NCBI GenBank assembly: GCA_049964315.1
Contig: JBMFXK010000002.1
Span: 1 to 26,052, forward strand
Source: Clostridia bacterium
GTDB taxonomy: Bacteria > Bacillota > Sulfobacillia > Sulfobacillales > JAIMBI01
Length of the DNA stretch: 26,052 nt
Reading direction: 5' to 3'
Each line of letters begins with the position of its first letter. The first letter of the stretch is position 1. The notes below the pieces were generated by a model. It had not been told where the DNA came from. It saw only the letters and a program-made list of their open reading frames with translations, and made no database searches. Position numbers and translations under genes: made by a program. Positions 1 to 26,052 of this stretch are shown piece by piece.

Positions 1-2
1 GA

Positions 3-1016
3 GCGGCGCTGGATCTGGCGTCGGCGCGGATCCGCGCCTTTTTGGAAGCGACCCGCCCGCCCCGGGAGCAAAAGGGCCCCGCGGCCGACGGGATTCAAGC
101 CCGGGTGATCTGGGAGCCGCTGCGGCGCGTGGCCGTGTACGTGCCGGCGGGACGTTTCCCCCTGTGCTCGAGCGTGCTCATGGGCGCGATTCCGGCTCAG
201 GTGGCGGGAGTCGGGGACGTTGCCCTCATGACCCCTCCGCAGCGGAACGGGCAGCCGGATGCCGCGACGCTGGCCGTCGCGGCCCTGCTCGGCATCGACG
301 AGGTTTATGCCGTGGGTGGCGTACAGGCGATTGCCGCCGCCGCTTACGGGACCGAGACGGTCGGTCGGGTCGATGCCATTGTCGGGCCGGGCAACCGTTA
401 CGTGACGGAGGCCAAGCGCCAGGTTGCGGGCATCGTCCGCATCGACGGCCTGAACGGACCCTCCGAGGTGGTCATCTGGGGGGATCATTCCGTATCGGCC
501 CGGCAGGCGGCGCTCGACCTCCTGGCCCAGGCCGAGCACGATCCGGAAAGCTGGGCCCTGGTCTTGAGCCACCAGACGGAATGGCTGGACGCGGTTGGAG
601 GGTGGGCTGAGAGGCTGGGCCGCGAGTTGCTGGCTCAACCGGGCGTCGGCGCGGTCGAGGTGGCGACCCCCGATGAGGCGGCGGTGTTCGTGAACGACTT
701 CGCTCCCGAACATCTAGAACTCTGGGGTGGCGCCGTCGGCCATGCGGACCGCATCACCTCCGCCGGGGCCACGTTTCTCGACTGCCCCACCCCGCTGGGT
801 GATTATGTCGCGGGCCCGAACCATGTCCTGCCCACCGGCGGACAGGCGCGCCGGGCCTCGGTCCTGGGCGTGGAGGATTTTCTCCGCCGGCGCACCGAAA
901 CCCGCGTCGTGAGCGACGCTGGCCGTGTCATCGAGGCCGGGGCGCAGCTGGCTAGGGCGGAGGGTCTGGAGCGTCACCGGGCTGCCCTGCTCGCGTTCCA
1001 GAAGGGCACCGTATGA
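3..1016 (+). CDS. hisD: Histidinol dehydrogenase, 5' end truncated by the window edge
   Basis: Frame is open from base 3 (AALDLASARIRAFLE...). HisD motifs IDGLNGPSEV, LLAQAEHDP, APEHLEL and GDYVAGPNHVLPT. Stop overlaps the hisB start (ATGA). Confidence 0.95.
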   Translation, partial: AALDLASARIRAFLEATRPPREQKGPAADGIQARVIWEPLRRVAVYVPAGRFPLCSSVLMGAIPAQVAGVGDVALMTPPQRNGQPDAATLAVAALLGIDEVYAVGGVQAIAAAAYGTETVGRVDAIVGPGNRYVTEAKRQVAGIVRIDGLNGPSEVVIWGDHSVSARQAALDLLAQAEHDPESWALVLSHQTEWLDAVGGWAERLGRELLAQPGVGAVEVATPDEAAVFVNDFAPEHLELWGGAVGHADRITSAGATFLDCPTPLGDYVAGPNHVLPTGGQARRASVLGVEDFLRRRTETRVVSDAGRVIEAGAQLARAEGLERHRAALLAFQKGTV

Positions 1017-1615
1017 GGGCGGCGAATGTCCGGACTCCCACCGCTGTAACCCGAACGACCCGCGAGACAGATGTCCAGGTGATCTTGGGGTCCGACGCCC
1101 CCGGCCTCGATGTGGCGGTTCCGATCTTCCAACACTTCTTGAACGCGTGCCTCACGACGTGGGGCTGCCCTGCGCGGGTTGAGGCCCGGGGCGATGTCGA
1201 CGTCGACCCGCACCATCTGGTGGAAGACGTCGGGCTCGTGCTGGGGCGGGCCCTGGCCGAACACTGGCCAGGTTACCGCGACATTGCCCGCTACGGGTGG
1301 GCCGTGGTGGCGATGGACGACGCTCGCGCCGAAGTGGCGCTGGACCTGTCAGGACGTGCCGGATGCTGGCTCGAGAAGGTGCCAGACGGCGCGGTCAATG
1401 GACTCGAGTCTGAGGTCTTAGGCGAGTTCTGGCAAGGTGTTGCCCGCGGCGGGGAGCTGACGCTCCACTTGAACATTCCGGCCGGGAACAGCCGCCACCA
1501 TCGCTGGGAGGCCGCCTTCAAGGCACTGGGACTGGCCCTGCGGCAAGCGACAGAACCCCGAGAGGGGACGCTCAGCACGAAGGGGGTGATTCGCCATGCG
1601 GGTCGCGATCATTGA
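1013..1615 (+). CDS. hisB: Imidazoleglycerol-phosphate dehydratase (monofunctional)
   Basis: R-T-T-R-E-T-D start, two metal-binding motifs DPHHLVEDVG and NSRHHRWEAAFKA, C-terminal STKGV. Lies between hisD and hisH. Confidence 0.96.
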   Translation: MRAANVRTPTAVTRTTRETDVQVILGSDAPGLDVAVPIFQHFLNACLTTWGCPARVEARGDVDVDPHHLVEDVGLVLGRALAEHWPGYRDIARYGWAVVAMDDARAEVALDLSGRAGCWLEKVPDGAVNGLESEVLGEFWQGVARGGELTLHLNIPAGNSRHHRWEAAFKALGLALRQATEPREGTLSTKGVIRHAGRDH

Positions 1616-2204
1616 TCTGGGATTCGGGAATTTGAACTCCGTGCGCTGGGCCCTGGAGCGATTGGGAGCGGAGGCGGTGATCACGGGGGACGCTGATACA
1701 GTTCTGGCCGCTGACGCCATCGTGGTGCCGGGGGTGGGCCATTTCGCGGCGGCCTCGGCGCGGCTGGCCGACACCGGTCTCGACACGGTCATCTGGCGCC
1801 GCGCTGGCGCCGTGCCGCTCCTCGGGATCTGCCTCGGCATGCAGATCCTGTTTGACCGCTCGGAAGAGGGTGGACGGGGCCTCGGCCTCCTCCCGGGTGC
1901 GGTGACCCGGCTGCGCGACCCGGCAGGGCCGCTCCCCCACGTGGGCTGGAACGCGGTTCAGGTGTCGGCCGCCGCAGGCATCATGGCGCGAGCGGGGGCG
2001 GGCGACGCGTACTTCTGCCACACCTATGCCGTCCGACCTGAGGATGCCCTGCTGGCCGCCGCCTTCACCGACTACGGCGATCGATTTGTCAGTGCGGTGC
2101 AGAAGGGCGTGGTGTGCGGCGTGCAGTTTCACCCGGAGCGGAGCGCCGCGTACGGAGCCGCAGTTCTGAAAGCATTTTTGGGACTGGCGCAATGTTCACG
2201 GTGA
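1596..2204 (+). CDS. hisH: Imidazole glycerol phosphate synthase, glutamine amidotransferase subunit
   Basis: IIDLGFGNLNSV, VPGVGHF, catalytic GICLGMQ and QFHPE motifs. Confidence 0.97.
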   Translation: MRVAIIDLGFGNLNSVRWALERLGAEAVITGDADTVLAADAIVVPGVGHFAAASARLADTGLDTVIWRRAGAVPLLGICLGMQILFDRSEEGGRGLGLLPGAVTRLRDPAGPLPHVGWNAVQVSAAAGIMARAGAGDAYFCHTYAVRPEDALLAAAFTDYGDRFVSAVQKGVVCGVQFHPERSAAYGAAVLKAFLGLAQCSR

Positions 2205-2896
2205 CGCCCGCCATAGATGTGGCGGGCGGTCGGGTGGTCCGGCTGTATCAGGGCTCGCCGGCGGCCATGACAGTCTACAACCAGGATCCGGTGGCCCAGG
2301 CCGCTTACTTTGTGGACGCGGGAGCACCCGCCCTTCACGTAGTGGATCTGGACGGCGCCTTTGGCCATCCGGGCTTGTCCGCGGAGAGCGTCCGCGACAT
2401 CGTGGCCCTGGGCGCTCCGGTCGAACTCGGGGGCGGCATCCGCACACTGGCGGCCGTGGCGCGATGGCTTGACTTCGGCGTGTCGCGGGTGCTGGTGGGG
2501 TCGGCGGTGCAAGACAGGACGCTGCTGGCCGCCATGGCGCGAGAGGCCGGTCCCGGCCGCCTCGCGGTGTCACTCGACATCCGGTCCGAACGGCTGGCAG
2601 TCCAAGGCTGGCGCGTTACGTCCGGCCTTGACGCCTCCCAAGTGGCGGAATCCCTTCGGGACGTCGGCCTCAATCAGTTGGTGGTGACGGCCGTGGAGCG
2701 AGACGGAACCGAACTGGGACCGGACTTGGCCCTGGTCCAAGCCTGGGTCTCGGCCGGTTTCCGCGTCACAGGAGCCGGCGGCGTCCGCCACGTCCACGAT
2801 CTTCGCGCGTTGAAGGCCGTACACGCAGAAGGCGCCGTCGTCGGGCGCGCCTTCTACGAGGGCCGCCTGACTATGAGGGAGGCACTGGTATGTTGA
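2192..2896 (+). CDS. hisA: ProFAR isomerase (HisA)
   Basis: PAIDVAGGRVVRL, LHVVDLDGA, GGGIR and RDGT motifs. Start placed at the ATG at 2192, overlapping the hisH 3' end, rather than the ORF-track start at 2114. Confidence 0.95.
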   Translation: MFTVTPAIDVAGGRVVRLYQGSPAAMTVYNQDPVAQAAYFVDAGAPALHVVDLDGAFGHPGLSAESVRDIVALGAPVELGGGIRTLAAVARWLDFGVSRVLVGSAVQDRTLLAAMAREAGPGRLAVSLDIRSERLAVQGWRVTSGLDASQVAESLRDVGLNQLVVTAVERDGTELGPDLALVQAWVSAGFRVTGAGGVRHVHDLRALKAVHAEGAVVGRAFYEGRLTMREALVC

Positions 2897-3648
2897 GGCC
2901 CCGGCTCCTTGCGTGCCTGGACGTGGCCGCAGACCGTGTGGTGAAGGGCCGGCGCTTTGAGGCGCTGGAGCAATTCGGGCGGCCCGAGGAATTGGCCCGT
3001 TGCTATCAGGACCAGGGCGCCGATGAAGTGGTGCTGCTCGACATCACCGCCACGCGAGAGCGGCGCGGGCCCGACCTGACGACGGTCAACCGGGTGGCCC
3101 GGACATTGTCCATCCCGTTGACGGTTGGCGGCGGACTCACGACTGCGGAGCAGGTCGGGCGCGTTCTCGCCGCCGGTGCGGATAAGACCTCCATTAACAC
3201 ATCCGCACTGAGCCGCCCGGAGCTGCTCCGGGAGGTGGCTGACCGTTACGGGACCCAGGCGGTCGTGGTGGCCGTGGATATACGCCAGCAGGGCCCGGGG
3301 TGGCGTGTCTACGGGCATGGCGGCCAAACCGCCACCGCCTGGACACTTGATGCCTGGCTGCGCGAGGCCGAGACTCTGGGAGCAGGCGAGGTGCTCCTCA
3401 CCTCCATCGACCGCGACGGCACCGGCCAGGGCTACGACATCGCCGCACTGGACGCCGCATCCCACGCGACATCCCGACCGCTCATCGCCTCGGGAGGCGG
3501 AGCCCGGCCGGCTGACCTGGAACTGGCCCTTCGGGTTCCCGGGGTGACGGCCGTGCTGGTGGCTGGAGTCCTGCACCGCGGCGAGACCACCGTCATGGCC
3601 TTGAAACGGGCTCTGGGGGCCAGGGGGCTCATCCTCCGTGGTGCATGA
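2890..3648 (+). CDS. hisF: Imidazole glycerol phosphate synthase, cyclase subunit
   Basis: CLDVAADRVVKG, GADEVVLLDITA, IPLTVGGG, LLTSIDRDGT and IASGG motifs. Confidence 0.97.
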   Translation: MLRPRLLACLDVAADRVVKGRRFEALEQFGRPEELARCYQDQGADEVVLLDITATRERRGPDLTTVNRVARTLSIPLTVGGGLTTAEQVGRVLAAGADKTSINTSALSRPELLREVADRYGTQAVVVAVDIRQQGPGWRVYGHGGQTATAWTLDAWLREAETLGAGEVLLTSIDRDGTGQGYDIAALDAASHATSRPLIASGGGARPADLELALRVPGVTAVLVAGVLHRGETTVMALKRALGARGLILRGA

Positions 3649-4243
3649 AGCCATGCCCGACCTCCTGCCGGTCGTGGTGCAGGATGTGGATACCGGGGCT
3701 GTGCTGATGGTGGCCTGGACCAACGCCGAAGCTCGCCGCCGGTCCGAGGAGACCGGGCGGGCTCACTTCTGGAGCCGGTCGCGGGGCGCGCTCTGGGACA
3801 AGGGCGCCACCTCGGGCCAGGTACTCCGGCTGGTGACCGTCCGTGAAGACTGCGACCAGGATGCCCTCCTGTACCAGGTCAGGGCGCCGCATGGCGCCTG
3901 TCACACCGGCCGTGCCAGCTGCTTCGGGGACGTTGAAACCGCCGTGTCCATGCTGGGCCGCCTGTTCCACATCCAGGAGGAGCGCCGAAACCACCCGTCT
4001 GCGGATCCATCGTACACGCGGTGTCTCGCTGCAGGCGGCATTGACCGGGTCCTGCGCAAGGTGGGTGAAGAGGCGGCCGAATTCCTGGTGGCCTGCAAGA
4101 ATCAGGATCCCGAAGAGGTGCGCGCCGAGGCTGCCGACGTTCTCTACCACCTCTGGCTCGCGCTGCACCTCTCGCACGTGAGCCTGGCCGAAGTCAGCCA
4201 GGAACTGGCCCGGCGCCATGAGCAAACGGGAGCAAGGCCGTGA
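3638..4243 (+). CDS. hisIE: Bifunctional phosphoribosyl-AMP cyclohydrolase / phosphoribosyl-ATP pyrophosphatase
   Basis: HisI motifs FWSRSR, WDKGATSG, DCDQDALL and ACHTGRASCF. HisE motifs KVGEEAAE and EAADVLYH. Confidence 0.96.
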   Translation: MVHEAMPDLLPVVVQDVDTGAVLMVAWTNAEARRRSEETGRAHFWSRSRGALWDKGATSGQVLRLVTVREDCDQDALLYQVRAPHGACHTGRASCFGDVETAVSMLGRLFHIQEERRNHPSADPSYTRCLAAGGIDRVLRKVGEEAAEFLVACKNQDPEEVRAEAADVLYHLWLALHLSHVSLAEVSQELARRHEQTGARP

Positions 4244-7751: not shown

Positions 7752-8174
7752 CGTGCCGCCTAGGTCCGAATGCCCGCAGAATGGCGGACTCTTGCTGGCA
7801 GTATCCGTTTCACGATATCTGTGCTCGAGCTGGAATAGGGTCTTCGGCGGAGACCCATCGGGGAGACGCGTCTTGCGAACGCACTTCTGCTCCGAGTCCC
7901 TCGTCCTGCGCTCAGCCATGTACTCGTGGTCCTTCCCGTCACCCGAGTTCAAAATCAGTTCCCGGCTACATCGAGGACACACCGGAATAGTATCCGGTCA
8001 CGTTCCTTGGCTCGATGAGCGGTTCACGCCCCCTCCTCCAACCAGGGGCCCGAATGGATAACCGCCAGGAGCAGGCCACGTTCCTCCTGCACGCCGATAA
8101 CGCTCGCACCCGGACGAAACAATCAACAACACTTTCAAAGTGATCCGTCGGTATCCGTCCGAAGCCGCTCTAAC

Positions 8175-8202
8175 TTAAAGGGGGGTGACAGTCGTCACCC
8201 CC
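8175..8202 (-). terminator. Likely intrinsic terminator downstream of the small peptide gene
   Basis: Perfect 9-bp stem (minus strand GGGGGTGAC-GACT-GTCACCCCC) followed by CTTTAA, about 85 nt after the peptide stop. Short U-tract. Confidence 0.5.
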
Positions 8203-8285
8203 GGACATGCCGTCTCCCACCGTGTCTACGCCCACTCTCGGGTCCCTTCACGGGCCCTACCCTGGCGACCGCACGTGAGCGTCAT

Positions 8286-8447
8286 CTAGCAAAGAGGCGG
8301 GAACCCTGGATCAGTGCAATATGGACTAGGCTGGCCAATCGCAATCACACTCGAGTGCATCGTCAACGGAACTGGCGAAATCCGAGCCGTCCCCATCAAC
8401 GCTGCAAGAACCGTAACCACAGATAGGATGGACAAGAACCGTTTCAT
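8286..8447 (-). CDS. Small secreted peptide precursor (53 aa), candidate signalling propeptide; not in the ORF track
   Basis: Manual translation: MKRFLSILSVVTVLAALMGTARISPVPLTMHSSVIAIGQPSPYCTDPGFPPLC*. Basic N-terminus plus hydrophobic core (signal-peptide-like). SD-like AAAGTAGTGA 5 nt upstream. Divergent from the XRE-TPR gene and followed by a hairpin. Confidence 0.75.
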   Translation of the reverse strand: MKRFLSILSVVTVLAALMGTARISPVPLTMHSSVIAIGQPSPYCTDPGFPPLC

Positions 8448-8528
8448 CAGGCTCACTACTTTCTAATGATGCAAGCGGAAACCGCCGATGAGATGCTTAC
8501 ACGATTCGCTTAGGGTGGTATCCATTCC

Positions 8529-8570
8529 TGGCATTTGCAATTCGGGTTTGTTAACCTTGCGTTCGCAAGG
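8529..8570 (+). promoter_or_regulatory. Putative sigma-A promoter of the XRE-TPR gene with an overlapping palindromic operator
   Basis: TGGCAT (8529-8534), 17-nt spacer, TAACCT (8552-8557) preceded by an extended -10 TG (8549-8550). Perfect inverted repeat CCTTGCG-TT-CGCAAGG (8555-8570) directly before the RBS AAGGAGAG. Confidence 0.35.
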
Positions 8571-8585
8571 AAAGGAGAGCGTGCG

Positions 8586-9812
8586 GTGACAGTCCCCGGA
8601 GCACAACGGCGATTCTCTTCCGAAAAGGCAACGCCCGACCACCTTGGCAACACGGTGAGCCGGTGGCGGCGGGAGAAAGGCTACACGCAACACTATCTAG
8701 CCCACGCCATAGGAATTTCGGCGGTTGCGCTGTCACGAATCGAAACCGGGGTGAACCGTCCCACAGCGGAGTTGTGGGTGCGCTTGATTCACGCCCTCGA
8801 CATGAGCCCCTCGCCTGCGGCGTGGGAAGTATTCGTCCTCGGAGAAACCCGCTGTGGGCGCATCATCGCGCTCGCCGATGAATTACTGGACCAGGGTCTC
8901 ATCGTGGACGCCCGCTGGGTTGTCTCAGAAGCAGAGCAACTTAATCAAACATCGTTTCACGGTCGATACAATGGGGAACTGGATCGACTCTGGGGTTGCG
9001 TCGCCTTTCTGGAGGGCAACTACCTTGAGGCGTCTCGCCGTTTCGAACAGATGACGCGGAACGCCACCAAGGGACTTCGGCGTCGCCAGGCCATTGCCGC
9101 CTACGACCACAGCATAGCCCTGTTTCACCTATCCAGGTGGGCGTCCGGATTGGCCCAACTGTCAACGGCTCAACGACTCTTTGCGCAAGACGGGGACAGT
9201 CGCGGAGAAGGACTCGCGCATTGGGCACGGGGTACGGCGCTCTTGAGGATGGGTGAATATGAGTCCGCGCAGACCAACTATGAACAGGCAGCTAAATCAC
9301 TGATGGGCACTCCCGAGGCCGCGTTTCCGAAATTCGGCGCACTGATATGTGAGTCAGCCCTGGGCTTAGCGCATGGCACCACCATTCAGAAGTTGATGAC
9401 GTTGGTGGAGGAGGCCCCCGCCAGCATGCGGCCGCGCATCTACCATTTCATCGGAACCGTAACCCGCTTGAACGGCGATCCGCGACATGCGTTGGAGTGG
9501 CTCGACCGGTCCCTTTTGACGGAGCCTATTGGCAGCGAGCAGTGGTGCGACACGCAGTGCGAGCGATTGCTCTGTCTGTGCCTAACCGGCGCGACGGCTG
9601 AAGCCGCCGACCTGTGGCCGGACGTGGCCGAGCACTGGGGCTCACTGAACGAGCATAATACACTGGCACTGGCAATCATGGGAATCATGCTGAAGCAGAG
9701 TCCTCCACCCGACACCGGCCGCCCATGGATTCGGCGACACCATGAGCGGCGTGTCGACGCGGTCATAGACTGGGCATGGCGCTACGGGGTTTCCGGGCCG
9801 CAGAACCCTTGA
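8586..9812 (+). CDS. XRE-family HTH plus tetratricopeptide-repeat transcriptional regulator (RRNPP-like peptide receptor)
   Basis: N-terminal HTH (WRREKGYTQHYLAHAIGISAVALSRIETG) followed by TPR-like helix pairs (e.g. AHWARGTALLRMGEYESAQTNYEQA, YHFIGTVTRLNGDPRHALEWLDRSL). GTG start at 8586, 6 nt after AAGGAGAG. Confidence 0.85.
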   Translation: MTVPGAQRRFSSEKATPDHLGNTVSRWRREKGYTQHYLAHAIGISAVALSRIETGVNRPTAELWVRLIHALDMSPSPAAWEVFVLGETRCGRIIALADELLDQGLIVDARWVVSEAEQLNQTSFHGRYNGELDRLWGCVAFLEGNYLEASRRFEQMTRNATKGLRRRQAIAAYDHSIALFHLSRWASGLAQLSTAQRLFAQDGDSRGEGLAHWARGTALLRMGEYESAQTNYEQAAKSLMGTPEAAFPKFGALICESALGLAHGTTIQKLMTLVEEAPASMRPRIYHFIGTVTRLNGDPRHALEWLDRSLLTEPIGSEQWCDTQCERLLCLCLTGATAEAADLWPDVAEHWGSLNEHNTLALAIMGIMLKQSPPPDTGRPWIRRHHERRVDAVIDWAWRYGVSGPQNP

Positions 9813-10595
9813 GTGATTGACCTTCCATTAGGCTGCGGATCTTCGAGGCTTCCGTTACAAGTGAGTTTCCGCACGTCAGACCGGCGACCGCAAGGGTTCG
9901 GCAAAGGCAGGGGTCCGAGCCACCGCAGACTGTGACAGACCCCGGCCAGCGGCACCAGGACGACCCTACCCGAATGTGGAAAACCGAGGCAAATCCACGT
10001 ATATTCAGCCTTCATCAGGGAGGATGGTCGCAAGGGGCTGGGCTCGCGAGATGGCGGGTACCAGCAGGTCTGGAAATCCGACCACCTGCTCGTCGCGTAG
10101 TCTCCGCGACGACTTCGATCGAAAGCGTTCATCGATTATAGCGCCATGGGATTCCGCCAGTAGAAGTTCGGGCTGATACCACCGATTGTCACTCTTCCGT
10201 ATATGCCGCCAAACCGCCACGGTCAGGGCCAGAGGCAGGTATTGACGTCGGGCCCAGGTAATCCAATTGACCTGCGGTCCCTTTGAGCCGCTTGTCGGAG
10301 CATTGCCATGCTCCAACGTACCCATAAGGGTACGCCCTTCCGGTGGGTGACGGAACAGAGGACAGCAAAGTCTTCCACCAAGATGTGGTGCTCGACGGGG
10401 CCCCCGAAATCGCTCAGGCCACGCCTGCTGCCCGTTCGGCGCGGACGGACGTTGGGGATCGGCCGCGAATCGCGGAAGAACCATAAGACAAGGCTCTTCG
10501 AACAAGGCCCATGGGAAGGGGGCCCGTGAAACTTCCTACGGCAGCCCCTGCGATGCGCATCAGGGTAACAGGGGAAGTGCGATCGGACCTCGGAG

Positions 10596-12683
10596 CTAGT
10601 TGTGTCCTCGAGGTGAGAGGGACCCCAGCCCGAACGCCTCCTGGAGAGCTTCCGCAACAGTAGCAACCGTACGGATCTCCAAGAGATCTTGGAAGTTCCG
10701 GCGGATGTCCTCAAGCTCCCCGCCATTGGCTTCGGGCACGAGGGCGCGCCTGCGTCCGTGTCGTAGAGCCGCGTAGAGCTTGGCCGACAGACCCCCCACG
10801 GGCTCGACCTCACCGTGAAGCGTCACCTCACCCGTAACCGCCAGCGCCGGCCTCACTGGCCTTCCCGTAAGGGCCGACACCATGGCCAGGAGGAACGCCA
10901 GGCCCGCTGAGGGTCCGTCCCGACGGCGCTCGATCGACACCAGATGGACCGCAAGGGTGGTTCCCTGCAATGCGTCTGGAGACAGGCGGAAGTCTGTCAG
11001 GTGCTCGCGGATGTAATGAAACGCGGCTTGGGCAGACTGCTCCATGGCCTTGCCGCGAAACCCCGTCATCTGGAGGCCGCCTGGTCCTGTCACCACCGAG
11101 GCCTCAACGACCTGAATGTCACCGTCGATCGGTTCGCCGTTTTGATCGAGGCGTGTCATGAGCGCCGTGATCTCACCGGGCCGCGGGTCGACGTTGAGCC
11201 GGTGATCGTGGGTGGTCCACACGACGCCGCGAGTAAAATCAGCTGGCCTGTGCGGCTCGATCCCCTCGAATCCGATGACGCGATCTCCGAATTCGCCGGA
11301 GGCAATCTGGCTTAGCTGGTTGTGCACCCTCTGCCGGAGCTCGCCCGCGAATCCGAGGAGGGCCTGAAGCTCGGGGCCTGCGGGCGTCTTATGCGGGTAG
11401 AGAAGCTTCATCAATCCACTCAGGACCTTGTCCACAGCGCGGCGGTCCCGCTGGGTGACCGCCGGACGGTAAGAATAGCGAGCCACGATGCCGGCAATCT
11501 CAGCGTCCATCGCGTGAACGCGAAGCTCGGCCATTATGGAGCCGATCGCGTCCATAGAAAGCCCCCACTCCGGCTCGAGGGCATCCGGGGTCAGCTTCGG
11601 GATCTCCCATCCTGGAATGAACATGTGGAGGCGGTCGATGACGGCCGTGTCCAGCAGCATGGGCGGCAGGTCCCGGAAAAAGTGGGTATAGTACGGGGCC
11701 GGCTGGCCGCCCTCGGTCGTGAGGTTTCCGAGCAGCACCAAAGATGCATCCGCAGAATACTCCCGGTTGCCGCGGGAGTACCGACCGCTCTCCATATAGT
11801 CTTTCAGGATGGATGTGGTTCCGTAGACGTCTTGGATGGCGAGGCCCGCCACCTCGTCGAACACCACACAGTCCGTGAAGCCCAAAATGCCCATCTCGCC
11901 CGTGTGCAGATTTACAAACAGGTTGGCGGGTGTAGTCATGCCGCCGCTTACCACGAACGTCCGGTCCGACACGTTCCGATAGAGATAGGTCTTGCCCGTA
12001 TTTTTCGGGCCGAGTTCGATGAGGTTGACCTGCGGCTCCACCAGCGGGATAAGCCGGGCCAGCATGAGCCATTTGATGCGCCGTGCGTCCGGAAGGTCCG
12101 CCCAAGCGCCCGGATTGTAGCCCAGCGAACATAACAGGAGGTCGACCCACTCGTCGACGGTCAGGGCGCTGCGGAGGTTCAAGAAATCTTGGAACGGCAC
12201 CCCGGTAGCCACCGGTTGAAACTCGGCGACAAATATCGGAGTCTCGCCCTTAGTGCGCGCCGTACGGTAGCGCAGCGTCACCCGGCCCCAGAGGCCGCCG
12301 CCCACCAGGCCAGGATATTCCTCCACGATCTCGGGGGGCACGTCCACCCGCCCCGTCCTCCTGAGGTTCGACAGGTGACCGTAGGGACGGCCCTGGCGGA
12401 CGTCCACCTGGATCGCCAGATGATCGAGGACTCTGAGGAAGCCATTTCGGGTCAGGGCGTAGAGGAACTGCTCGTTGTTGTGAGGACCGGGCAGATAGCG
12501 TTCAACGGCCTCCACGGCCGGACCGAGGCCCATCTTCCCTACCAGGTTTTCGGCCGCGAAGCGCGGGAGACGCGCCAACACCCCGCTGCGGGTGTGGCCC
12601 TTCTCCACCACCCAGCGGGGGTCGATCGCCTCGATCCTGGCCCGCAGTTCGCGATGCGCGGCCGACGCCGCGTCCGCCATCAT
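10596..12683 (-). CDS. brxL: BrxL-like protein: BrxL N-terminal region, AAA+ ATPase and C-terminal Lon protease domain (695 aa)
   Basis: RLIPLVE..NLIELGPKNTGKTYLY, SGGMTTPANLF, DCVVFDEV and AVIDRLH match the BrxL/Lon_2 ATPase pattern. DGPSAG...TGEVTLHGEVEPVGGLSAK is a Lon_C domain. RBS AGGAG. Confidence 0.88.
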   Translation of the reverse strand: MMADAASAAHRELRARIEAIDPRWVVEKGHTRSGVLARLPRFAAENLVGKMGLGPAVEAVERYLPGPHNNEQFLYALTRNGFLRVLDHLAIQVDVRQGRPYGHLSNLRRTGRVDVPPEIVEEYPGLVGGGLWGRVTLRYRTARTKGETPIFVAEFQPVATGVPFQDFLNLRSALTVDEWVDLLLCSLGYNPGAWADLPDARRIKWLMLARLIPLVEPQVNLIELGPKNTGKTYLYRNVSDRTFVVSGGMTTPANLFVNLHTGEMGILGFTDCVVFDEVAGLAIQDVYGTTSILKDYMESGRYSRGNREYSADASLVLLGNLTTEGGQPAPYYTHFFRDLPPMLLDTAVIDRLHMFIPGWEIPKLTPDALEPEWGLSMDAIGSIMAELRVHAMDAEIAGIVARYSYRPAVTQRDRRAVDKVLSGLMKLLYPHKTPAGPELQALLGFAGELRQRVHNQLSQIASGEFGDRVIGFEGIEPHRPADFTRGVVWTTHDHRLNVDPRPGEITALMTRLDQNGEPIDGDIQVVEASVVTGPGGLQMTGFRGKAMEQSAQAAFHYIREHLTDFRLSPDALQGTTLAVHLVSIERRRDGPSAGLAFLLAMVSALTGRPVRPALAVTGEVTLHGEVEPVGGLSAKLYAALRHGRRRALVPEANGGELEDIRRNFQDLLEIRTVATVAEALQEAFGLGSLSPRGHN

Positions 12684-12697
12684 CTCATCTCCTACGC

Positions 12698-13930
12698 CTA
12701 AAACAGACGTTTTCGCTGGACGGGTCCCTCATCCTCATTTTCCACCACGGCCTGCTCCGTCAGATCCACTTCCTCCACGTGCCAGACGACGATCTCGGGC
12801 TCGCGACCATACTGAAGCCAGTGGTCGAGCCACTGCACCGACGCCCGGATCCGCGTCCTCAGGCGGGCGTCGGCCCCGCGCACGTGCCGGTCGAGAAACC
12901 GCTGCAGATCTTCCTCTGCCGGCGGTTCCCATTCGTAAGCGCGGGCGTGCACGGCGCGAATCGTAGCCAGGAGCGAGTGAATCTCCTCGGACGACAAGGC
13001 CGGCAGCCGCTCGGCGCGCATCAGTTCGGCGATCCCGCGCCGCGCGAGGGTCGCTTCGCGTTCGCGCCCTCGCTGCGAAAGCCATCCGGGACCCTTCTCC
13101 GCATCCTCCTTAGCCTCCAGCACGTCTGAGTAGAAGTTCGAGGCCACAGCCGCTATGACAACGGTGCGGGGAAGCTCCTGGGCGACGGCAAGATCGAATA
13201 GGTTACTGTACGCGAGCGCCCGTTGTCCGATAGAAGTCTTGCCGATGAGTTCGAGCTCGTCGATTAAGATGAGCCAACCCGCAAAGCCCGCCTGCCGGAT
13301 CAACTCCGCCATCAACCGGTAGTACCAGATCGGCTCGCGTGTAAAGGCGTACGGGGGGAGACGGTGATCCAGACCGAGATCGCGGAGGATCGCCTTCAAT
13401 CGCCCGACCATCAAGAACTCTCCCGATAGATCTGCTAACAGCTCGTGGCGATAGGTCATGTCCACGTGAAAGTAAGCCTCAAGCGATGCCCGCAGTCGGT
13501 CCGGGATTCCGGCATGTTCCAGGGAAGCCAGCACCTCAGAGGCCCGGGGCTGCAGCCGGTCGAGGAGCGGCGCCAGCCCCAAACGCTGGGATCCCGGGGT
13601 CCGGGTCCCTGTGGCCACCGCCTTGAACAGGGCACCCAGGTTGTTGAGGGGAGCCTCCCGGCTGATGCTGATGGCGCTGACGACATGACCAGCAGAAAGG
13701 GCGGTTCCGGTCACCGCCTGCAGGAAGTGGGTCTTGCCTTCCCCATAGTTGGCGCGCACCAGAAGCGGCCCACCCCGTCCGGTCTGCAGCATCGCTCCCA
13801 CCCGGCCCAGAAGGGCGCTCCGGCCGATGGGAAGCTTCTGGGCCAGGGCGGCAAACGGCACCCCCGCCCGGAGGCTTTCCAGAATACGCTCGGCTTCGTG
13901 CTGCTCAAGATCGTTACGGAGCATCGTCAT
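12698..13930 (-). CDS. DUF2791 / BrxD-like P-loop ATPase, second copy (410 aa)
   Basis: N-terminal EAERILESLRAGVP (typical DUF2791 start), Walker A ANYGEGKTH, Walker B WLILIDELE. RBS AGGAGG; overlaps the upstream gene by 17 nt. Confidence 0.8.
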   Translation of the reverse strand: MTMLRNDLEQHEAERILESLRAGVPFAALAQKLPIGRSALLGRVGAMLQTGRGGPLLVRANYGEGKTHFLQAVTGTALSAGHVVSAISISREAPLNNLGALFKAVATGTRTPGSQRLGLAPLLDRLQPRASEVLASLEHAGIPDRLRASLEAYFHVDMTYRHELLADLSGEFLMVGRLKAILRDLGLDHRLPPYAFTREPIWYYRLMAELIRQAGFAGWLILIDELELIGKTSIGQRALAYSNLFDLAVAQELPRTVVIAAVASNFYSDVLEAKEDAEKGPGWLSQRGREREATLARRGIAELMRAERLPALSSEEIHSLLATIRAVHARAYEWEPPAEEDLQRFLDRHVRGADARLRTRIRASVQWLDHWLQYGREPEIVVWHVEEVDLTEQAVVENEDEGPVQRKRLF

Positions 13931-15065
13931 GCGGCTCTACCTCCTGACTGAGGGCCAGCACGGCCCGTCGTACGGGAGACACCCGCCCCTGGGGCGGGGG
14001 CACCGCCACCACGGTGGTGCGCAGGTGTTCGGCCCACTTGGCCACCAACATCGTCAGGTTGTCAGGATCCTGAGACCAGACCCGGTCCCAGTCCACGTGA
14101 TCTTCGAAGCGATTCAACGCACGGGTCTCGATTTCATTCACAACCCGGGCGTCAAGCGCTGGGTACGACTTGAAGCCCGTTCGCTCATCCGTAAAGAGTT
14201 CCGGGCGTGCCGCCACCACGAGCCACACTCCTGGGAGCGCGTCACCGTCATCGATGAACTGGCGGAGCATCTCGTAGGTCTCTTCCCGGCGAAGACGGGT
14301 GTAGTACGGAATGCCCTCCACCTTCGGGGCCATCACTTGATCCAAGTTGTCGACAGTGACAAGGAGGCCGGGCAGGCCCGCCGCCAAAGCGGCCGCGCCC
14401 CAGCCTTGCAGGATCCCGCGCGCGTTCAGCTTGGACAGGGGTCGGGAGAGGCCCACGGCGGCCAGCCTGCCGCGAGTCACCTTCCCGCCCCGAAACCAGA
14501 CGGCCACATCGTCGCTGTCCTGGCTGGCCGCGCCGAGCGTCCTGTCCAGGCCAAATCCTATGGCCGTCTTGAGGTTCAGGTCGATGTCCAGGACGCTGAT
14601 CGTGCGGTCGACCGCCTCGCGCACATCGGCAAGCGCGCGCTCCCGCATCCGGCCCCGGTTTGAGACCAGCCAATCAAGGAGCCACGCAGGATCTCCCACC
14701 TCGTTAGGGTCATAGCCCATGGTGCGAATCACCTGGCGGCTGAGCGCGGTCAGCACGCTTTGATACGGAAGCTTCTGCAGTAACGCCCGCACGAATTCTT
14801 CAATCCCGCGCAGCCACTCTGTGCGGGCGTCCAACTCGACTACCAGCATACCGACGTCTCGCGCGCCCAGCCCCAGCTGGTGCAGCGCATGCGACTTGCC
14901 GCTGCCCTCCCGGCCCTGAATCCACTTCACCTTGCTGCCGCCGGCAGGGATGAACCGGGACGCGTAGTGCTCGATCCAAAACCGGTTCATGCCCTGCGGA
15001 TCCACGGACACGGCCCGGAAGCTCTCGTCAGCCAAGGGGGGCAGCCCCCACTCGACTCCGTTCAC
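13914..15065 (-). CDS. DUF2791 / BrxD-like P-loop ATPase, first copy (383 aa)
   Basis: FIPAGGSKVKWIQGREGSGKSH (Walker A), LLVTVDNLD (Walker B region), LRQFID and GFKSYPALDARV resemble BrxD-type motifs. GTG start overlaps the upstream stop (GTGA). Confidence 0.8.
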   Translation of the reverse strand: MNGVEWGLPPLADESFRAVSVDPQGMNRFWIEHYASRFIPAGGSKVKWIQGREGSGKSHALHQLGLGARDVGMLVVELDARTEWLRGIEEFVRALLQKLPYQSVLTALSRQVIRTMGYDPNEVGDPAWLLDWLVSNRGRMRERALADVREAVDRTISVLDIDLNLKTAIGFGLDRTLGAASQDSDDVAVWFRGGKVTRGRLAAVGLSRPLSKLNARGILQGWGAAALAAGLPGLLVTVDNLDQVMAPKVEGIPYYTRLRREETYEMLRQFIDDGDALPGVWLVVAARPELFTDERTGFKSYPALDARVVNEIETRALNRFEDHVDWDRVWSQDPDNLTMLVAKWAEHLRTTVVAVPPPQGRVSPVRRAVLALSQEVEPHDDAP

Positions 15066-15865
15066 CGGCTTTCCTCTACGAGTTCATACGATCCGAGGTT
15101 GTCCACGCCACCTGTCGGGCGCGGTACCGGCACGGCGCCTCGAGGATTTCGGGAGGGGTTCAGCACGAACCGCCGTCCTCGGTAGCGCATGTCGGACTGA
15201 TAGCGGAGCCGGTACAGATCGAAGGCAAACTGCCGGAGGGGATACGCTGCGGACCCATCTCGCAGGATAAGCACGTCATAGGCGCGCCGCAGCGGGACCC
15301 CTACCGCCATGCCGCCCTCCGCCCGGATGAGAAGGTCATAGGCTTCCGCCATCCCGCGCATGAACGCCTGCGCATTGAAGCGTGCCCCGAACAGCCGATC
15401 CCGCTCGCCTTGAATCAGCTTCGCCAGTACTTTTGGGCGGAGCACGTGGGTGGTTCGCTTGTTGACCATCGCGGCGTCGTCGACGAGGTTTATCTCGATC
15501 TCAAATGGGAACACCTCATAGCGAGGGTACTCGCCGCCAAATTCCACCTCGAGGCCGCGCAGCTCCGCCTCGAACGCTCGCGCCCACTCGGTCTCTTCGG
15601 CCTCGTTGGGAGCCAACATCGTACGCGACAGGATACCGTCCAGCTGTTCGAGCACGGACGCCAATTCGTCGACAACGCCCTTTCCGTCCCGAACCAGCCG
15701 GGACGCATCGAACGTATTTAACTCCTGGGCAAGCTTTGGAAGCCGGCCCACCCGGGCGACCCGCTTCACGAGCTGAACGGCACGGGCGACCACCTGAGCG
15801 GACGCTTCGTCAAAGGAATCCCAGCTCACGACCGCGCCGTCCTGAATCTCTTGGTAATCCTCCAT
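15062..15865 (-). CDS. Hypothetical protein (267 aa), first gene of the ATPase/BrxL operon
   Basis: Protein-like composition; ATG at 15865 is 7 nt after AAGGGGG; stop overlaps the next start. Helical N-terminus. C-terminal VPLRRAYDVL...YPLRQFAFDLYRL may be a winged helix (inference). Confidence 0.8.
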   Translation of the reverse strand: MEDYQEIQDGAVVSWDSFDEASAQVVARAVQLVKRVARVGRLPKLAQELNTFDASRLVRDGKGVVDELASVLEQLDGILSRTMLAPNEAEETEWARAFEAELRGLEVEFGGEYPRYEVFPFEIEINLVDDAAMVNKRTTHVLRPKVLAKLIQGERDRLFGARFNAQAFMRGMAEAYDLLIRAEGGMAVGVPLRRAYDVLILRDGSAAYPLRQFAFDLYRLRYQSDMRYRGRRFVLNPSRNPRGAVPVPRPTGGVDNLGSYELVEESR

Positions 15866-16278
15866 CCATGGTCCCCCTTGCACGCTTCGACAGCAATGGA
15901 CGAGGATTCTCGGGGGGATGGGCCAACTCCTTTCCGCCCCGACGTGGCCTGGGCTGGGGTATGAGCGAGGTAACCGGCGCGTCTCTCAACGTTACCCGTG
16001 CCGCTTGCCGAACGACTGCCCGACGCGGAGTTGCAGGAGTGGAAGAGCAAAACGGCGCGCCTTACGACTCTGACCCCGAGGATGTGGCAAGCGCGTGGCC
16101 TTGATTCCCGCTTGTATCAGCTTGTGCGCTGCATCGGCATCTTCGAGCCAAAGGCCCGTGTGAGGCGGGTCACGCGGCTGCGAGGCGAGATCTGACAGGC
16201 ACCTGCACGGCGACACCGAGCGCCGCCCGCGCGGGCATTCTCACCCATAGTTCCGCCACACTGCGCCCAGCGGGCGGG

Positions 16279-18120
16279 CTAGCTCTGAACGTGCGTGCCG
16301 TACCGTGCAACCAGGGTCACAGTGATCTGCGTTCGGTTGGCCGTGTTGGCTAAGACAAAAGAGACATGCCACGGAATTTGGCGCGGCAGCTTCACCCACC
16401 CCGCCGCCATCGCCATCCAGGCCAGTCCGTTGTACGGCATGTAGGACGTTTCCGTGAATCCCGGCGGGGCGTGGGGTTGAATGAGCGAGTGCGGTCCCTC
16501 CATCATCATCGCGGTGCCGGATTGGTCGGCGCCGAGTCCCCACCCCCACCATGGGGGTTCGGCGCTGCCCACCCGATTGAACTGGGCAGCGTCCGGCCCC
16601 GTATAGCGCACCGAGACACGCGCGACAAGTGGCCGTGGCACCGGGGCAACGAGCACGTCTGCCAAGTCCGGAGTTATATTTCCGTAGTTCGGCAGCGGGG
16701 GCTGGGCGAATACGCGTTGACGATACGGCGCGCCAATGGGACCGATAACCAGCCGTAGGAGGTCGGCAAGATACGGAGTGTAGACGGCCACGGGACGTAT
16801 AACCGCTGATATATGCCAGTATCCCTGGGAGCCCGTCCAGATCATCTGGGAGGGCAGCGCAGGCTCTTCAAAGGGGCCAATCCGTACCAGCCCTGATGCC
16901 GTTGCGAGGAATGCATAGTGCGACCCAGGCGCAACCGAGATGGGAGACCCCTGGGCGGTTGCGAGCACACTCCCGTCGGGTCTCAGGGCGTAGACGTCTC
17001 CGTTCTTTACCGCCACCACGACCCCACTTGCATCGAGGATTCCAAGGCCGCGGTATCCTCGGAGCACAGGCAGCTGGATCCCCATACTTGACTCGTCCCA
17101 GACCATAAGGCGTGTGCCGCTGGTCGTGTTCACCAGGTGTGCATCGGCACTGAGGGGACCGCTGGGACTCGAGCCGTACAACGAAAGCCCGCTCTGGGAT
17201 ATTTCCAGGACTTTAGACCCATAGTGCAGGACGAACCCGGCTCCGTCGTTTACAGGAATGATGGTCGCTCCACCTCGCGGCGGAGACACCGTCTCGATGA
17301 CGTGACTTTGGAACTGGACCTGAGGCAGCGCCCGACGGCCCGTTAGGGAAGATACGTAGACGGTGGTCACCCGCCCCGAGATGCAGGAGATGATGGCTTG
17401 GGAGCCCGCAGCGTTCTTGGTCAAGAACGAGCCACGTCCGCCCGGAACGATTGCCCGGATGCGGTCGGTCGAGTCGAGAACGTATGTCGTGAAGCGGTCG
17501 CTGAGCAGAAAGCCGTTGCCCGGCCCCGGGCGCACCCAGAAAGGGCCATGAGGGTTCGTCAGATGAATGGGCAGGAGCACAAAGCCTCCGGCCGAGGGTG
17601 ACGCCGCCGTGCGGTCGAGCCTTGTGGTGGCCAGCACGCGTCCGTTCGCTTCCACCAGGATCGCGTATGTTCGCCCGGAGATGCGCACCACCAGGAGGGT
17701 CTTCGTCACCGGAGAGGTCCATGCGGCGAGGATATGGGTGTTGCCCGAAAACACGTGCGTCCAGAGAGGTTTCTTCAGGTAATCGGTTCGGAACGCGACG
17801 GCGCGGTGACCCTCTGTCAGGACCAGAAGTCCCGAGGACAGGGCCAGGTGTGCGTGCCCATTGAAACCGACCGGCCACTCCCGACGCAGCACCCACGTCC
17901 CCTGCGTGGCGGTCCGCTGGCGGGAAACGTAAAGACCTACCACTAAGGCGGCGGCTGTGACCACGGCCAGGGCCGGGAAAAGTCTCCACCTCGGCGCTGT
18001 CTCTGGGCGACGTCGCCGCACTATAGGCGTCGGCTCCGGACCGGACCACTCCGGGACCCGTGTCAGCACATCACGGTGGAATCGCTCCTGTAAGCGTGCT
18101 CGCTCCTCCTCATCGCCCAT
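16279..18120 (-). CDS. Membrane-anchored putative anti-sigma factor with a large extracytoplasmic region (613 aa)
   Basis: ATG at 18120 after GGGGAGGTG overlaps the sigma factor 3' end. Short charged N-terminus, one TM helix (LFPALAVVTAAALVVGLYV), then about 550 aa of beta-rich sequence. Confidence 0.7.
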   Translation of the reverse strand: MGDEEERARLQERFHRDVLTRVPEWSGPEPTPIVRRRRPETAPRWRLFPALAVVTAAALVVGLYVSRQRTATQGTWVLRREWPVGFNGHAHLALSSGLLVLTEGHRAVAFRTDYLKKPLWTHVFSGNTHILAAWTSPVTKTLLVVRISGRTYAILVEANGRVLATTRLDRTAASPSAGGFVLLPIHLTNPHGPFWVRPGPGNGFLLSDRFTTYVLDSTDRIRAIVPGGRGSFLTKNAAGSQAIISCISGRVTTVYVSSLTGRRALPQVQFQSHVIETVSPPRGGATIIPVNDGAGFVLHYGSKVLEISQSGLSLYGSSPSGPLSADAHLVNTTSGTRLMVWDESSMGIQLPVLRGYRGLGILDASGVVVAVKNGDVYALRPDGSVLATAQGSPISVAPGSHYAFLATASGLVRIGPFEEPALPSQMIWTGSQGYWHISAVIRPVAVYTPYLADLLRLVIGPIGAPYRQRVFAQPPLPNYGNITPDLADVLVAPVPRPLVARVSVRYTGPDAAQFNRVGSAEPPWWGWGLGADQSGTAMMMEGPHSLIQPHAPPGFTETSYMPYNGLAWMAMAAGWVKLPRQIPWHVSFVLANTANRTQITVTLVARYGTHVQS

Positions 18121-18663
18121 GCCGCACCTCCCCATCCTCGGCCCCAAGCCAGCGCTTTAGGCGTTCTCGGCTCCGTGCGAGCCGGCTTTTCACGGTGCCC
18201 TGTGACACGCGGAGCATCTGCGCGGTCTCCCGCACGTCGAAGCTAGCCCAGTAATAAAGAAGCGTGGCCTCCCTATAAGGAGGCGGAAGGGACTGGACTG
18301 CGTCCAGCAGGTCCCCACGAGGCTCCGGCCCGGTACAGGAAGGCAGGCGGGATCCGTCACCACCTGGCGACGCCTCCAGGGTCGCCTTTGTTCGCTTCGA
18401 CTGGCCAGGATCACCCCACGAGCGAGCCAGGCCCAGTTGACCGGCCGTCCCGACTCCAGGATGCGGAAGGCGCGGTACAGAACGTCCTGCACCACTTCCT
18501 CCGCGAGTTGACGATCCTGGAGCTGTCCCAGGGCGAGGCCGCGAAGGTGGAATTCGTGCGCCGACACGAGCGCAGCCAGCGCCGCTTCCGGCGTCAACCG
18601 GGCAGAGTCGAGCGCCGTCTCGCGGTACTGGTCAGGGCGGTCTGGAATCCGACTCACTTCCAT
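18110..18663 (-). pseudogene. ECF (sigma-70 group 4) RNA polymerase sigma factor with a single frameshift
   Basis: Region 2 (DRQLAEEVVQDVLYRAF, WAWL) reads from ATG 18663 after GGAGG. Region 4 (DLLDAVQSLPPPYREATLLYYWASFDVRETAQMLRVSQGTVKSRLARSRERL) is in another frame, switching near 18328-18334 and ending at TGA 18110. The 554-nt span is one base short of a 184-aa ORF. Confidence 0.85.
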
Positions 18664-18777
18664 TCGGCCTCCGCATTGTGGTCTTGCCACTCCTTCGGGA
18701 GCGTGCAGGGCTTTCCATTCCGCGTGTCAGCTTGTCGCCAAGCACAACGCAGCGAACGAGGGCGCAGGTTCCCTGCT

Positions 18778-25368: not shown

Positions 25369-26052
25369 TCACGTCAGGGTGGCCGGGTCGATGAGGGTCG
25401 CGCCGGCCGCGAATCGGCAGAGGGCATCAATCAGGGGCAGCTGCTCGACGGTGCGGGGCTTGGCGTCCAACAGCGCCGGAGACGCGACCAGCACCGCCAG
25501 CCCCTGCGCCCGCGAGACCGCGACATTGAGCCGGTTCAGGCTGTAGAGAAACTCCGGCCCCCGGGGTGCATCCTCGAGACTTGAGGAGGCCAGGGTGTAA
25601 ATGACGACCGGCGCCTCCTGTCCCTGAAACCGGTCGACGGTTCCCACCCGGGCCCCAGTCGGGAGCGCACGGATGAGGCGGTTTACGTGCGCGTTGTATG
25701 GGGCCACAACCAGAATGTCGGGCAACGCGAGGGATCGCGTGCGTCCGTCGCGGCCGATCCAGGACCGGTCGACGAGGGCCCGAATCACTGCCCGCACCAC
25801 GTCGACTTCCTCCGGGGACACCGTCTTCCGGTCTTTATGGGAAACTGGGATGAAACGGAGGCCGGTTCCGGAGAGGGCATCGCCGCCCCCGAGCCGCTGT
25901 TGGCCGCACGCGTCATCCGAGCGGAGACGATCCTCATAGGCAATGGCCGAGATGTAGCGCCCAATGTCCGGATGCAGGCGGTGGGAGACGTCGAGAAACA
26001 CCCCCTCGTCATCGCCGATGAAGCGCGCCAGAAGCTCGCCGACATGCCGGCG
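25369..26052 (-). CDS. SF1 (Upf1/DNA2-like, AAA_12) helicase C-terminal domain, possibly of a TM0106-family nuclease-helicase; 5' end beyond the window
   Basis: SHRLHPDI, VVAPYNAHV, GTVDRFQGQEAPVVI and NRLNVAVSRAQ motifs. Frame is open to base 26052. Confidence 0.9.
   Translation of the reverse strand, partial: RRHVGELLARFIGDDEGVFLDVSHRLHPDIGRYISAIAYEDRLRSDDACGQQRLGGGDALSGTGLRFIPVSHKDRKTVSPEEVDVVRAVIRALVDRSWIGRDGRTRSLALPDILVVAPYNAHVNRLIRALPTGARVGTVDRFQGQEAPVVIYTLASSSLEDAPRGPEFLYSLNRLNVAVSRAQGLAVLVASPALLDAKPRTVEQLPLIDALCRFAAGATLIDPATLT

Follow-up and report, generated by a model that had tools for sequence, protein, structure and literature searches.

The contig JBMFXK010000002.1 of the Clostridia bacterium assembly GCA_049964315.1 carries on its minus strand a cassette of four genes (15865-10596), referred to here as g1 to g4, which code in this order for a protein without annotation, two ATPases of the BrxC_BrxD family (PF10923, formerly DUF2791), and a BrxL-like protein extended by a Lon protease domain. 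Judged by its domains and neighbourhoods, this cassette is probably an undescribed relative of the helicase-loader systems of phage defence. The reading that we favour, though well short of certainty, is that it would form a stand-alone, modification-independent defence module, in which a loader acts together with a DNA motor against phages or plasmids, and which would represent the BrxL-linked form of a widespread mobile trio, g1-g2-g3. As the gene neighbourhoods indicate, this trio is the conserved evolutionary unit, and BrxL is one of several interchangeable partners. The cassette occurs in genomes lacking PglZ and recurs without a bacteriophage exclusion (BREX) core. The initial annotation of this DNA had taken the four genes together for a candidate BREX-related system; since the partners of the trio vary, this term fits the parts, and not the system.

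Recurrence was surveyed in 401 genomes spread evenly over the phylum and representing 278 genera, among which related genomes are not independent, and about two dozen loci (24) were inspected with regard to their neighbourhood. The g1 profile matched in 18 of the 401 genomes, one match being a 60-residue fragment, which leaves 17 trio-bearing genomes, our own included, distributed in a patchy manner over 17 of the 278 genera. In all 17, g1 is followed by homologues of g2 and g3 in the same order, an arrangement also encountered in further loci. The trio continues into BrxL in only three of these genomes, namely, our own, G176, and G266. In six loci, a helicase of about 550 residues, XPB-like and composed of ResIII and Helicase_C domains, lies on the strand opposite to the trio; L049 combines the trio with a small protein and an SNF2 helicase, L011 (Sulfobacillus) with a SWIM-SNF2 helicase, and in the metagenomic locus L008, the trio faces a 1704-residue AAA_11/AAA_12 helicase. 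Three loci (L035, L037, and L038, from genomes G167, G075, and G223) harbour it between cas3 and cas1/cas4 (Csa1) of a type I CRISPR-Cas system, and the remaining trio loci show no obvious partner. When PADLOC was run on 104 neighbour proteins, it returned helicase matches of the Cas3/PbeA/DpdE type for eight of them, Cas1 matches for three to five, and Cas4 matches for three. The four-gene unit proposed initially does recur, but its conserved core is limited to g1-g2-g3, BrxL being exchanged elsewhere for XPB-like or SNF2 helicases or for a CRISPR-Cas context. The exchange of BrxL, superfamily 2 (SF2), and SNF2 proteins behind a constant trio points to divided tasks, in which the trio would sense and load, and the fourth gene would supply the motor.

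With regard to the full cassette, the g1-g2-g3-BrxL-Lon arrangement is present in at least seven lineages (our own, L084, L085, L003, L006/L009, G176, and G266). The g3 protein of L084 is 84% identical to ours, and a blastn comparison of this locus with the window, by which we mean the entire contig of 26,052 bp, gave 81% nucleotide identity confined to positions 10625-15933. This similarity ends downstream at most 30 bp from the g4 stop codon, and reaches upstream about 70 bp into the 413-bp intergenic gap, where the L084 contig ends. The flanks differ in every copy of the cassette, with toxin-antitoxin, Fic, and M78-DUF4411 genes in L003, restriction-modification and DUF2283 genes in L084, and McrBC-like genes in L085; beyond the four genes of the cassette, none of the relatives' genes has a counterpart beside it in our genome. 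In G176, the cassette is split over contigs C163 (end of L033) and C218 (end of L081), the break lying between g3 and the BrxL gene; the two contig ends share an overlap of about 210 bp, within which three single bases differ, and the split is probably due to strain heterogeneity in the assembly. A decayed cassette was found in L083:8699-13336 (GCA_027419815.1), where unrelated small open reading frames (ORFs) take the place of g1 and of some 115 codons at the 5' end of g2. The unrelated flanks, the limits of the L084 identity, and the decay in L083 speak against a vertically inherited housekeeping locus, which the initial annotation had named as an outcome that would refute its reading; the behaviour of the cassette is that of a self-contained unit, which can be dispensed with and transferred.

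Two of these loci show additional features. Near the decayed cassette of L083 lie the IstB gene of an IS21 element and an N6_N4 methylase/Mrr-like pair. In L085, a histidinol dehydrogenase gene abuts the cassette, and a PDDEXK_7/DUF2357 protein and an MrcB_N-AAA_5 protein are encoded 6-8 kb downstream of it (L085:11806-13992).

The genome from which the window derives is metagenome-assembled (655 contigs, 3.28 Mb, 66% G+C, about 85% complete). The four coupled genes of the cassette and the gaps that isolate them were found at the coordinates and with the junctions first claimed (Table 1). According to the ORF listing, g1 and g2 overlap by 4 nt and g2 and g3 by 17 nt, and 14 nt separate g3 from g4. 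Every start is preceded, 6-10 nt on its 5' side, by a Shine-Dalgarno-like purine run, in order AAGGGGGA, GAGGAAAG, AGGAGGT, and TAGGAGAT. The ORF of g1 extends over 15062-15883 and offers an ATG at 15865 and an alternative GTG start at 15883; homologue lengths fit the shorter product and support the ATG as the preferred start. The upstream gap contains neither a family-supported ORF nor a consensus sigma-70 site, and a scan for promoters and terminators gave a count not above that of shuffled sequence. Downstream, ORF 10005-10505 (166 residues) was considered as a fifth gene and rejected: it has no match in Pfam, NCBIfam, or PADLOC, and the relatives carry no homologue of it downstream of g4. 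Profile hidden Markov models also recovered the domains previously assigned to g2, g3, and g4.

Table 1. Coordinates of the cassette genes, their domains and motifs, and the flanking gaps (positions in the window)
Feature	Position	Strand	Size	Remark
g1	15062-15865	-	267 aa	
g2	13914-15065	-	383 aa	
g3	12698-13930	-	410 aa	
g4	10596-12683	-	695 aa	
Upstream intergenic region	15866-16278		413 bp	Presumed promoter-bearing
Downstream region	9813-10595		783 bp	Sole sizeable ORF 10005-10505
g2 Walker A GREGSGKS	14892-14915	-		Intact
g2 Walker B	14346-14366	-		Degenerate, D-N instead of D-E
g3 Walker A ANYGEGKT	13730-13753	-		
g3 Walker B	13256-13273	-		Canonical D-E
g4 BrxL_N	12267-12608	-		PF20442, 41.6 bits
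g4 MCM-like AAA+ domain	11280-12221	-		PF13337 BrxL_ATPase, 322 bits, E 3e-96
g4 Lon_C protease domain	10632-11129	-		PF05362, 137.8 bits, E 5e-40
g4 Walker A GPKNTGKT	11988-12011	-		
g4 Walker B VVFDE	11853-11867	-		
g4 Ser592 (in DGPSAG)	codon 10908-10910	-		Lon dyad serine
g4 Lys635	codon 10779-10781	-		Lon dyad lysine, 43 residues after Ser592

Both ATPases of the pair belong to the PF10923 family (E 1.9e-16 for g2 and 1.2e-21 for g3), in line with their first description as BrxD-like. However, as their scores indicate, they are family members and not BrxD orthologues: on the BrxD equivalog model NF033438, with a cut-off of 350 bits, g2 reaches 36.7 bits and g3 43.3 bits, and both fail. 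In PADLOC, g2 matches BrxD with 36.7 bits and SngB, the ATPase of the Shango system, with 24.4 bits, and g3 gives equally weak matches to SngB (43.7 bits) and BrxD (43.4 bits), the SngB model having no stated cut-off. Among 23 aligned loci, the GxGK[ST]H and GW..h.DE.E motifs of g3 are present in all 23. In g2, the Walker B glutamate is absent from all but two of them, with D-N, D-D, or D-Q instead, and the Walker A motif is lost in L049 and in a clade (L013, L035, L037, and L038) that includes the CRISPR-embedded loci. Because this degeneracy is one-sided, g3 is likely the hydrolysing, catalytic subunit, and g2 likely a non-hydrolysing partner with a binding or regulatory function.

The protein encoded by g1, always the first gene of the trio, found no match in Pfam, PADLOC, NCBIfam, or PHROGs, and its family is devoid of annotation. 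A collection of 5.8 billion proteins contains 11 close homologues, and a profile search extends the family to 480 representative clusters at E<=1e-3; a fold search returned two uncharacterised proteins from the AlphaFold database clusters and unnamed clusters only from the ESM Atlas. An arginine-rich motif at residues 208-221 (15203-15244), which lies in the predicted recognition helix, is the best-conserved stretch in the 11 closest homologues, where it is invariant to nearly invariant, and few of its positions remain near-invariant when 60 family members are aligned. The AlphaFold (AF2) model, with a predicted local distance difference test score of 88 for the whole protein and of 96 for residues 88-267 refolded, comprises an N-terminal helical hairpin (residues 15-81 approximately), a small alpha/beta domain in the centre, and, at the C-terminus, a helix-helix-beta-hairpin unit. 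Foldseek searches with the g1 models gave no significant match in the PDB. The matches of a whole-g1 fold search were dominated by the N-terminal hairpin (ESCRT-III and SMC coiled coils), and hence uninformative. VIA-align superimposed the last 100 residues or so on many winged-helix domains, including those of SelB, STN1, ORC1, Cdc6, Cdt1, forkhead, and histone H5, with non-significant Z scores of 5.5-6.8 that the tool itself rates as unreliable. We treat it as a lead that the C-terminus may be winged-helix-like, a unit that would probably dock onto nucleic acid or an ATPase.

The last gene, g4, codes for a protein whose closest match in the PDB is BrxL of Acinetobacter (8EMC, E 2e-82, residues 67-660 aligned), and which scores 392 bits with the PADLOC BrxL model. 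It passes the short BrxL model TIGR02688 (361.4 bits versus a cut-off of 329.3), whereas it fails both the full-length type 1 BrxL model TIGR02653 (361.5 versus 628) and the Lon equivalog TIGR00763 (123.8 versus 608), which matches the protease domain alone. Aligned with Lon protease domains, g4 has Ser592 and Lys635 in register, and by this dyad, the protease appears to be active in our lineage. The dyad is missing in 8EMC and in 26 of the 27 BREX-side BrxLs aligned, the exception being G322. Among the seven trio-linked lineages, five keep it intact and two (G176 and G266) have lost it, and all seven retain the AAA+ Walker motifs. Proteolysis therefore cannot be the core activity, as far as these motifs tell, and is probably an accessory one, plausible in our lineage. 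In a maximum-likelihood tree, the trio-linked BrxLs (five included) form one split from the BREX-linked BrxLs with support of 100/99. The dyad was also considered as a hallmark of the trio-linked BrxLs and discarded, since two of them are without it and the BrxL from the BREX-like locus of G322 has it. In that locus (L080, G322:C27:1-20000), a BREX-like operon codes for a 1178-residue protein without Pfam match, a 971-residue PglZ, and an 853-residue N6_N4 methylase, BrxL is directly preceded by an inserted AbiEi/AbiEii pair, and the Lon domain of this BrxL (175 bits) keeps its Ser-Lys dyad; not every BrxL found in a BREX context is therefore protease-dead.

Taken together with the make-up of the cassette, these features suggest the following sequence of events. 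The g1 protein, with its coiled-coil and its winged-helix-like part, would assemble with g2 and g3 on foreign or aberrant DNA, g2 probably binding ATP without hydrolysing it and g3 acting as the active ATPase. The resulting complex would load or switch on a DNA motor, as the origin recognition complex (ORC)/Cdc6 proteins do with the minichromosome maintenance (MCM) helicase, and as is proposed for BrxD with BrxHI and for SngB with SngC. In our lineage, this motor would be g4, an MCM-like BrxL ring that may encircle double-stranded DNA and block the replication of the invader, and its Lon domain may contribute a further, dispensable layer by degrading proteins bound to the DNA. The genes found beside trios, which include toxin-antitoxin, Fic, M78-DUF4411, restriction-modification, IS21, and McrBC-like genes, support a defence function of this loader-plus-motor module.

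Several observations count against it. The neighbourhood of our own cassette is no clear defence island, since it consists of genes for an XRE-TPR regulator, a hybrid kinase, an extracytoplasmic function (ECF)-sigma-like protein, a hydrolase, and a MazG-like protein, and around the trios of L013/L036, L045, and L048, the genes are of the housekeeping type and include no motor. The assignment of a winged helix to g1 relies on Z scores below the trust level of the tool, the BrxL tree contains long branches, and a fragment resembling type 3 BREX is present in our genome, on contig C143. The loss of the Lon dyad in G176 and G266, described above, belongs here as well.

A more far-reaching form of the proposal, which we regard as improbable, sees in the cassette a bacterial equivalent of the loading of MCM by ORC/Cdc6, recruited for immunity, in which the heteromeric ATPase pair and a winged-helix adaptor would recognise the DNA of the invader and load the BrxL ring, whose active Lon chamber would then strip and degrade DNA-bound proteins. 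If true, the cassette would represent a DNA-guided protease effector that dispenses with a self-marking modification.

Three other explanations were weighed, and each of them ranks below the loader-plus-motor module because of the points that stand against it. An ORC-like loader and an MCM-like motor could serve the maintenance of DNA or of a mobile element (for instance, control of replication, repair, or partition of an integrated element) and not immunity. Both ATPase families come from replication-initiation clades, no defence genes can be recognised beside several of the trio loci, and our window is devoid of an integrase and poor in defence genes. However, in none of the 24 loci inspected is the trio accompanied by a replication origin or by a gene for a primase, polymerase, partition protein, or integrase; the trio is located three times inside CRISPR-Cas loci and often beside restriction-modification, toxin-antitoxin, McrBC-like, or defence-type helicase genes; and the decay of the L083 cassette beside IS21 is of a kind common for dispensable accessory genes. 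We therefore hold such a non-immune role to be unlikely. A comparable degree of doubt applies to an abortive infection, in which the ATPase pair would sense the phage and BrxL-Lon would destroy host or phage proteins, with death or arrest of the cell. The proteolytic effector put forward in the initial annotation gains from the Lon_C match of 138 bits and from a dyad in register with Lon, which the BREX BrxL lacks and which five of the seven trio-linked lineages, ours included, have kept. It is weakened by G176 and G266, which have the cassette and the AAA+ Walker motifs yet not the dyad, as well as by the pairing of most trio loci with a protease-free helicase, which points to an action directed at DNA. 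Further, the pore of BrxL binds double-stranded DNA, and its C-terminal domain serves ring dimerisation (PMC10164562).

The relation of the cassette to BREX bears on the last of the three. In agreement with the first description, no BREX core adjoins the cassette: PglZ, BrxC/PglY, a methyltransferase, 3'-phosphoadenosine 5'-phosphosulfate (PAPS) reductase, and a BrxH-type helicase are all absent within about 9 kb on either side. A window-wide Pfam scan of the large ORFs revealed neither a PglX/PglXI methyltransferase nor a BrxP PAPS reductase, the contig carries no PglZ, and the window contains no ORF of more than 700 residues and no PF10923 protein of BrxC length. PglZ matches over the cut-off were obtained in 7 of the 17 trio-bearing genomes, compared with 84 of the 401 overall, and in none of the other ten. 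G266, which is 97% complete, and G401 both possess the full cassette and have no PglZ match, from which we conclude that the cassette is independent of the BREX core. The constant company of pglZ, mentioned initially as a finding that would count against a new system, is thus not observed in these genomes, although a pglZ gene exists in ours. This only PglZ of our genome sits on contig C143 (L002:3-7019), where a 674-residue N6_N4 methylase-like protein, an 810-residue SNF2/ResIII helicase, the 630-residue PglZ, and a 241-residue protein of no assigned family are encoded on one strand, in the order of type 3 BREX, the contig being cut at both ends. Described type 3 systems use BrxHII and contain neither BrxL nor BrxD (PMC12839542). 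That the cassette would lend a BrxL/BrxD-type module in trans to such a type-3-like system elsewhere in the genome is very unlikely: the gene order on C143 and the mild excess of PglZ in trio genomes, uncorrected for relatedness, speak for it, but the PglZ-free genomes, the composition of type 3, and the failure of g2 and g3 on the BrxD equivalog all speak against it.

Elsewhere on the contig, positions 1-4243 hold the his operon (hisD, B, H, A, F, and IE) with 69% G+C, and the remainder (4500-26052) has a mean of 62-65% G+C with a minimum of 58% near 8000-9000, a step that may mark the boundary between core and accessory DNA. Directly upstream of the cassette, the same strand (16279-18690) codes first for a 166-residue protein, weakly matched by Sigma70_r2, and then for a 622-residue protein with a marginal CU044_5270 match only. 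This pair, which may encode an ECF sigma factor and its anti-sigma factor, is not conserved beside the cassette elsewhere. The sole helicase on the contig is a C-terminal fragment at 25369-26052 on the minus strand, cut by the contig end and about 9.5 kb upstream of the cassette. It stems from a large AAA_12/UvrD_C_2 helicase, matches the Mokosh protein MkoA in PADLOC with 80 bits and MkoC and DpdJ more weakly, and may represent a Mokosh-like defence gene.

Few parts of BREX are as poorly understood as BrxL and BrxD. A cassette that does without a methylase, PglZ, and BrxC would permit a direct test of how the BrxL ring acts and is recruited, and, with its intact Lon dyad, it lends itself to the question of whether protease activity exists in any protein of the BrxL type. 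The interchangeable motors suggest a general loader-plus-motor logic common to Shango and type 2 BREX, and the several hundred uncharacterised clusters of the g1 family have apparently been missed by current defence catalogues.

As for catalogued systems, whose possible identity with the cassette had been left to be checked, scans with PADLOC-DB 2.0.0, Pfam, and NCBIfam yielded no system-specific model matched by it, and neither the four-gene cassette nor the trio is described in the literature searched. Compared with LonA/LonB, g4 shares the Lon_C domain, the serine within DGPSAG, and a lysine 43 residues further on, whereas its ATPase is BrxL/MCM-like and not a Lon AAA+ module, and its scores remain far below the equivalog cut-offs. 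BrxL itself is an ATP-dependent AAA+ ring that encircles double-stranded DNA, its Walker B residue is required for restriction, and its C-terminal domain lacks the Lon catalytic residues and mediates the dimerisation of rings (PMC10164562). The type 1 BrxL of Acinetobacter (8EMC) has the same three-part architecture as g4, with conserved AAA+ Walker A and B motifs; g4 differs by its Lon dyad, by its failure on TIGR02653, by its place on a branch of trio-linked proteins only, and by the lack of an adjoining BREX core. PbeABCD, a system with a CxC ABC ATPase and a DndE-like partner beside an SF2-HKD helicase (PMC10853773), was considered because trio-adjacent helicases elsewhere match PADLOC PbeA, and was set aside, as the trio has no Pbe match and the Pbe system is made up of other components.

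The likeness to ORC/Cdc6 and MCM is one of analogy only: in both cases, AAA+ ATPases of the initiator clade, some of them catalytically dead, are encoded with an MCM-family ring, the clade assignment being taken from the cited papers. The cassette differs in that its genes are mobile accessory genes and that the fold matches of g1 are weak, and loading by the cassette would hold by analogy. BrxD, a member of the ORC/Cdc6 clade, is the proposed loader of BrxHI (PMC12839542). The BrxD-BrxHI pair of BREX types 2 and 6 resembles the cassette in the tight linkage of a DUF2791 ATPase to a DNA motor, for which loading or activation is proposed (PMC12839542), whereas the cassette stands alone, with no BrxHI, PglW, PglX, PglY, or PglZ nearby, and g2 and g3 fail NF033438.

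A second loader-type relative is Shango. Credit for this system reportedly goes also to Millman 2022. Shango is composed of SngA, a TerB-domain protein, SngB, a DUF2791 ATPase, and SngC, a DEAD/DEAH helicase, and protects against phages (Johnson 2023, PMC10250203). Like our cassette, it is a small operon that lacks a modification gene, starts with a non-enzymatic gene, and adds to it an ATPase of the PF10923 family and a DNA motor; further, g3 gives a match to SngB (43.7 bits), no stronger than its match to BrxD, and the majority of the trio's relatives have an SF2 helicase as partner. The differences lie in the ATPases, two paralogues here, one of them degenerate, and a single one in Shango; in g1, which gives no TerB match (Pfam, PADLOC, E<=0.01); and in the motor, an AAA+ ring of the BrxL type that carries a Lon domain, instead of the SF2 helicase SngC. 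The parts of the cassette come from known defence-associated families, and its predicted logic resembles that of Shango and BrxD-BrxHI.

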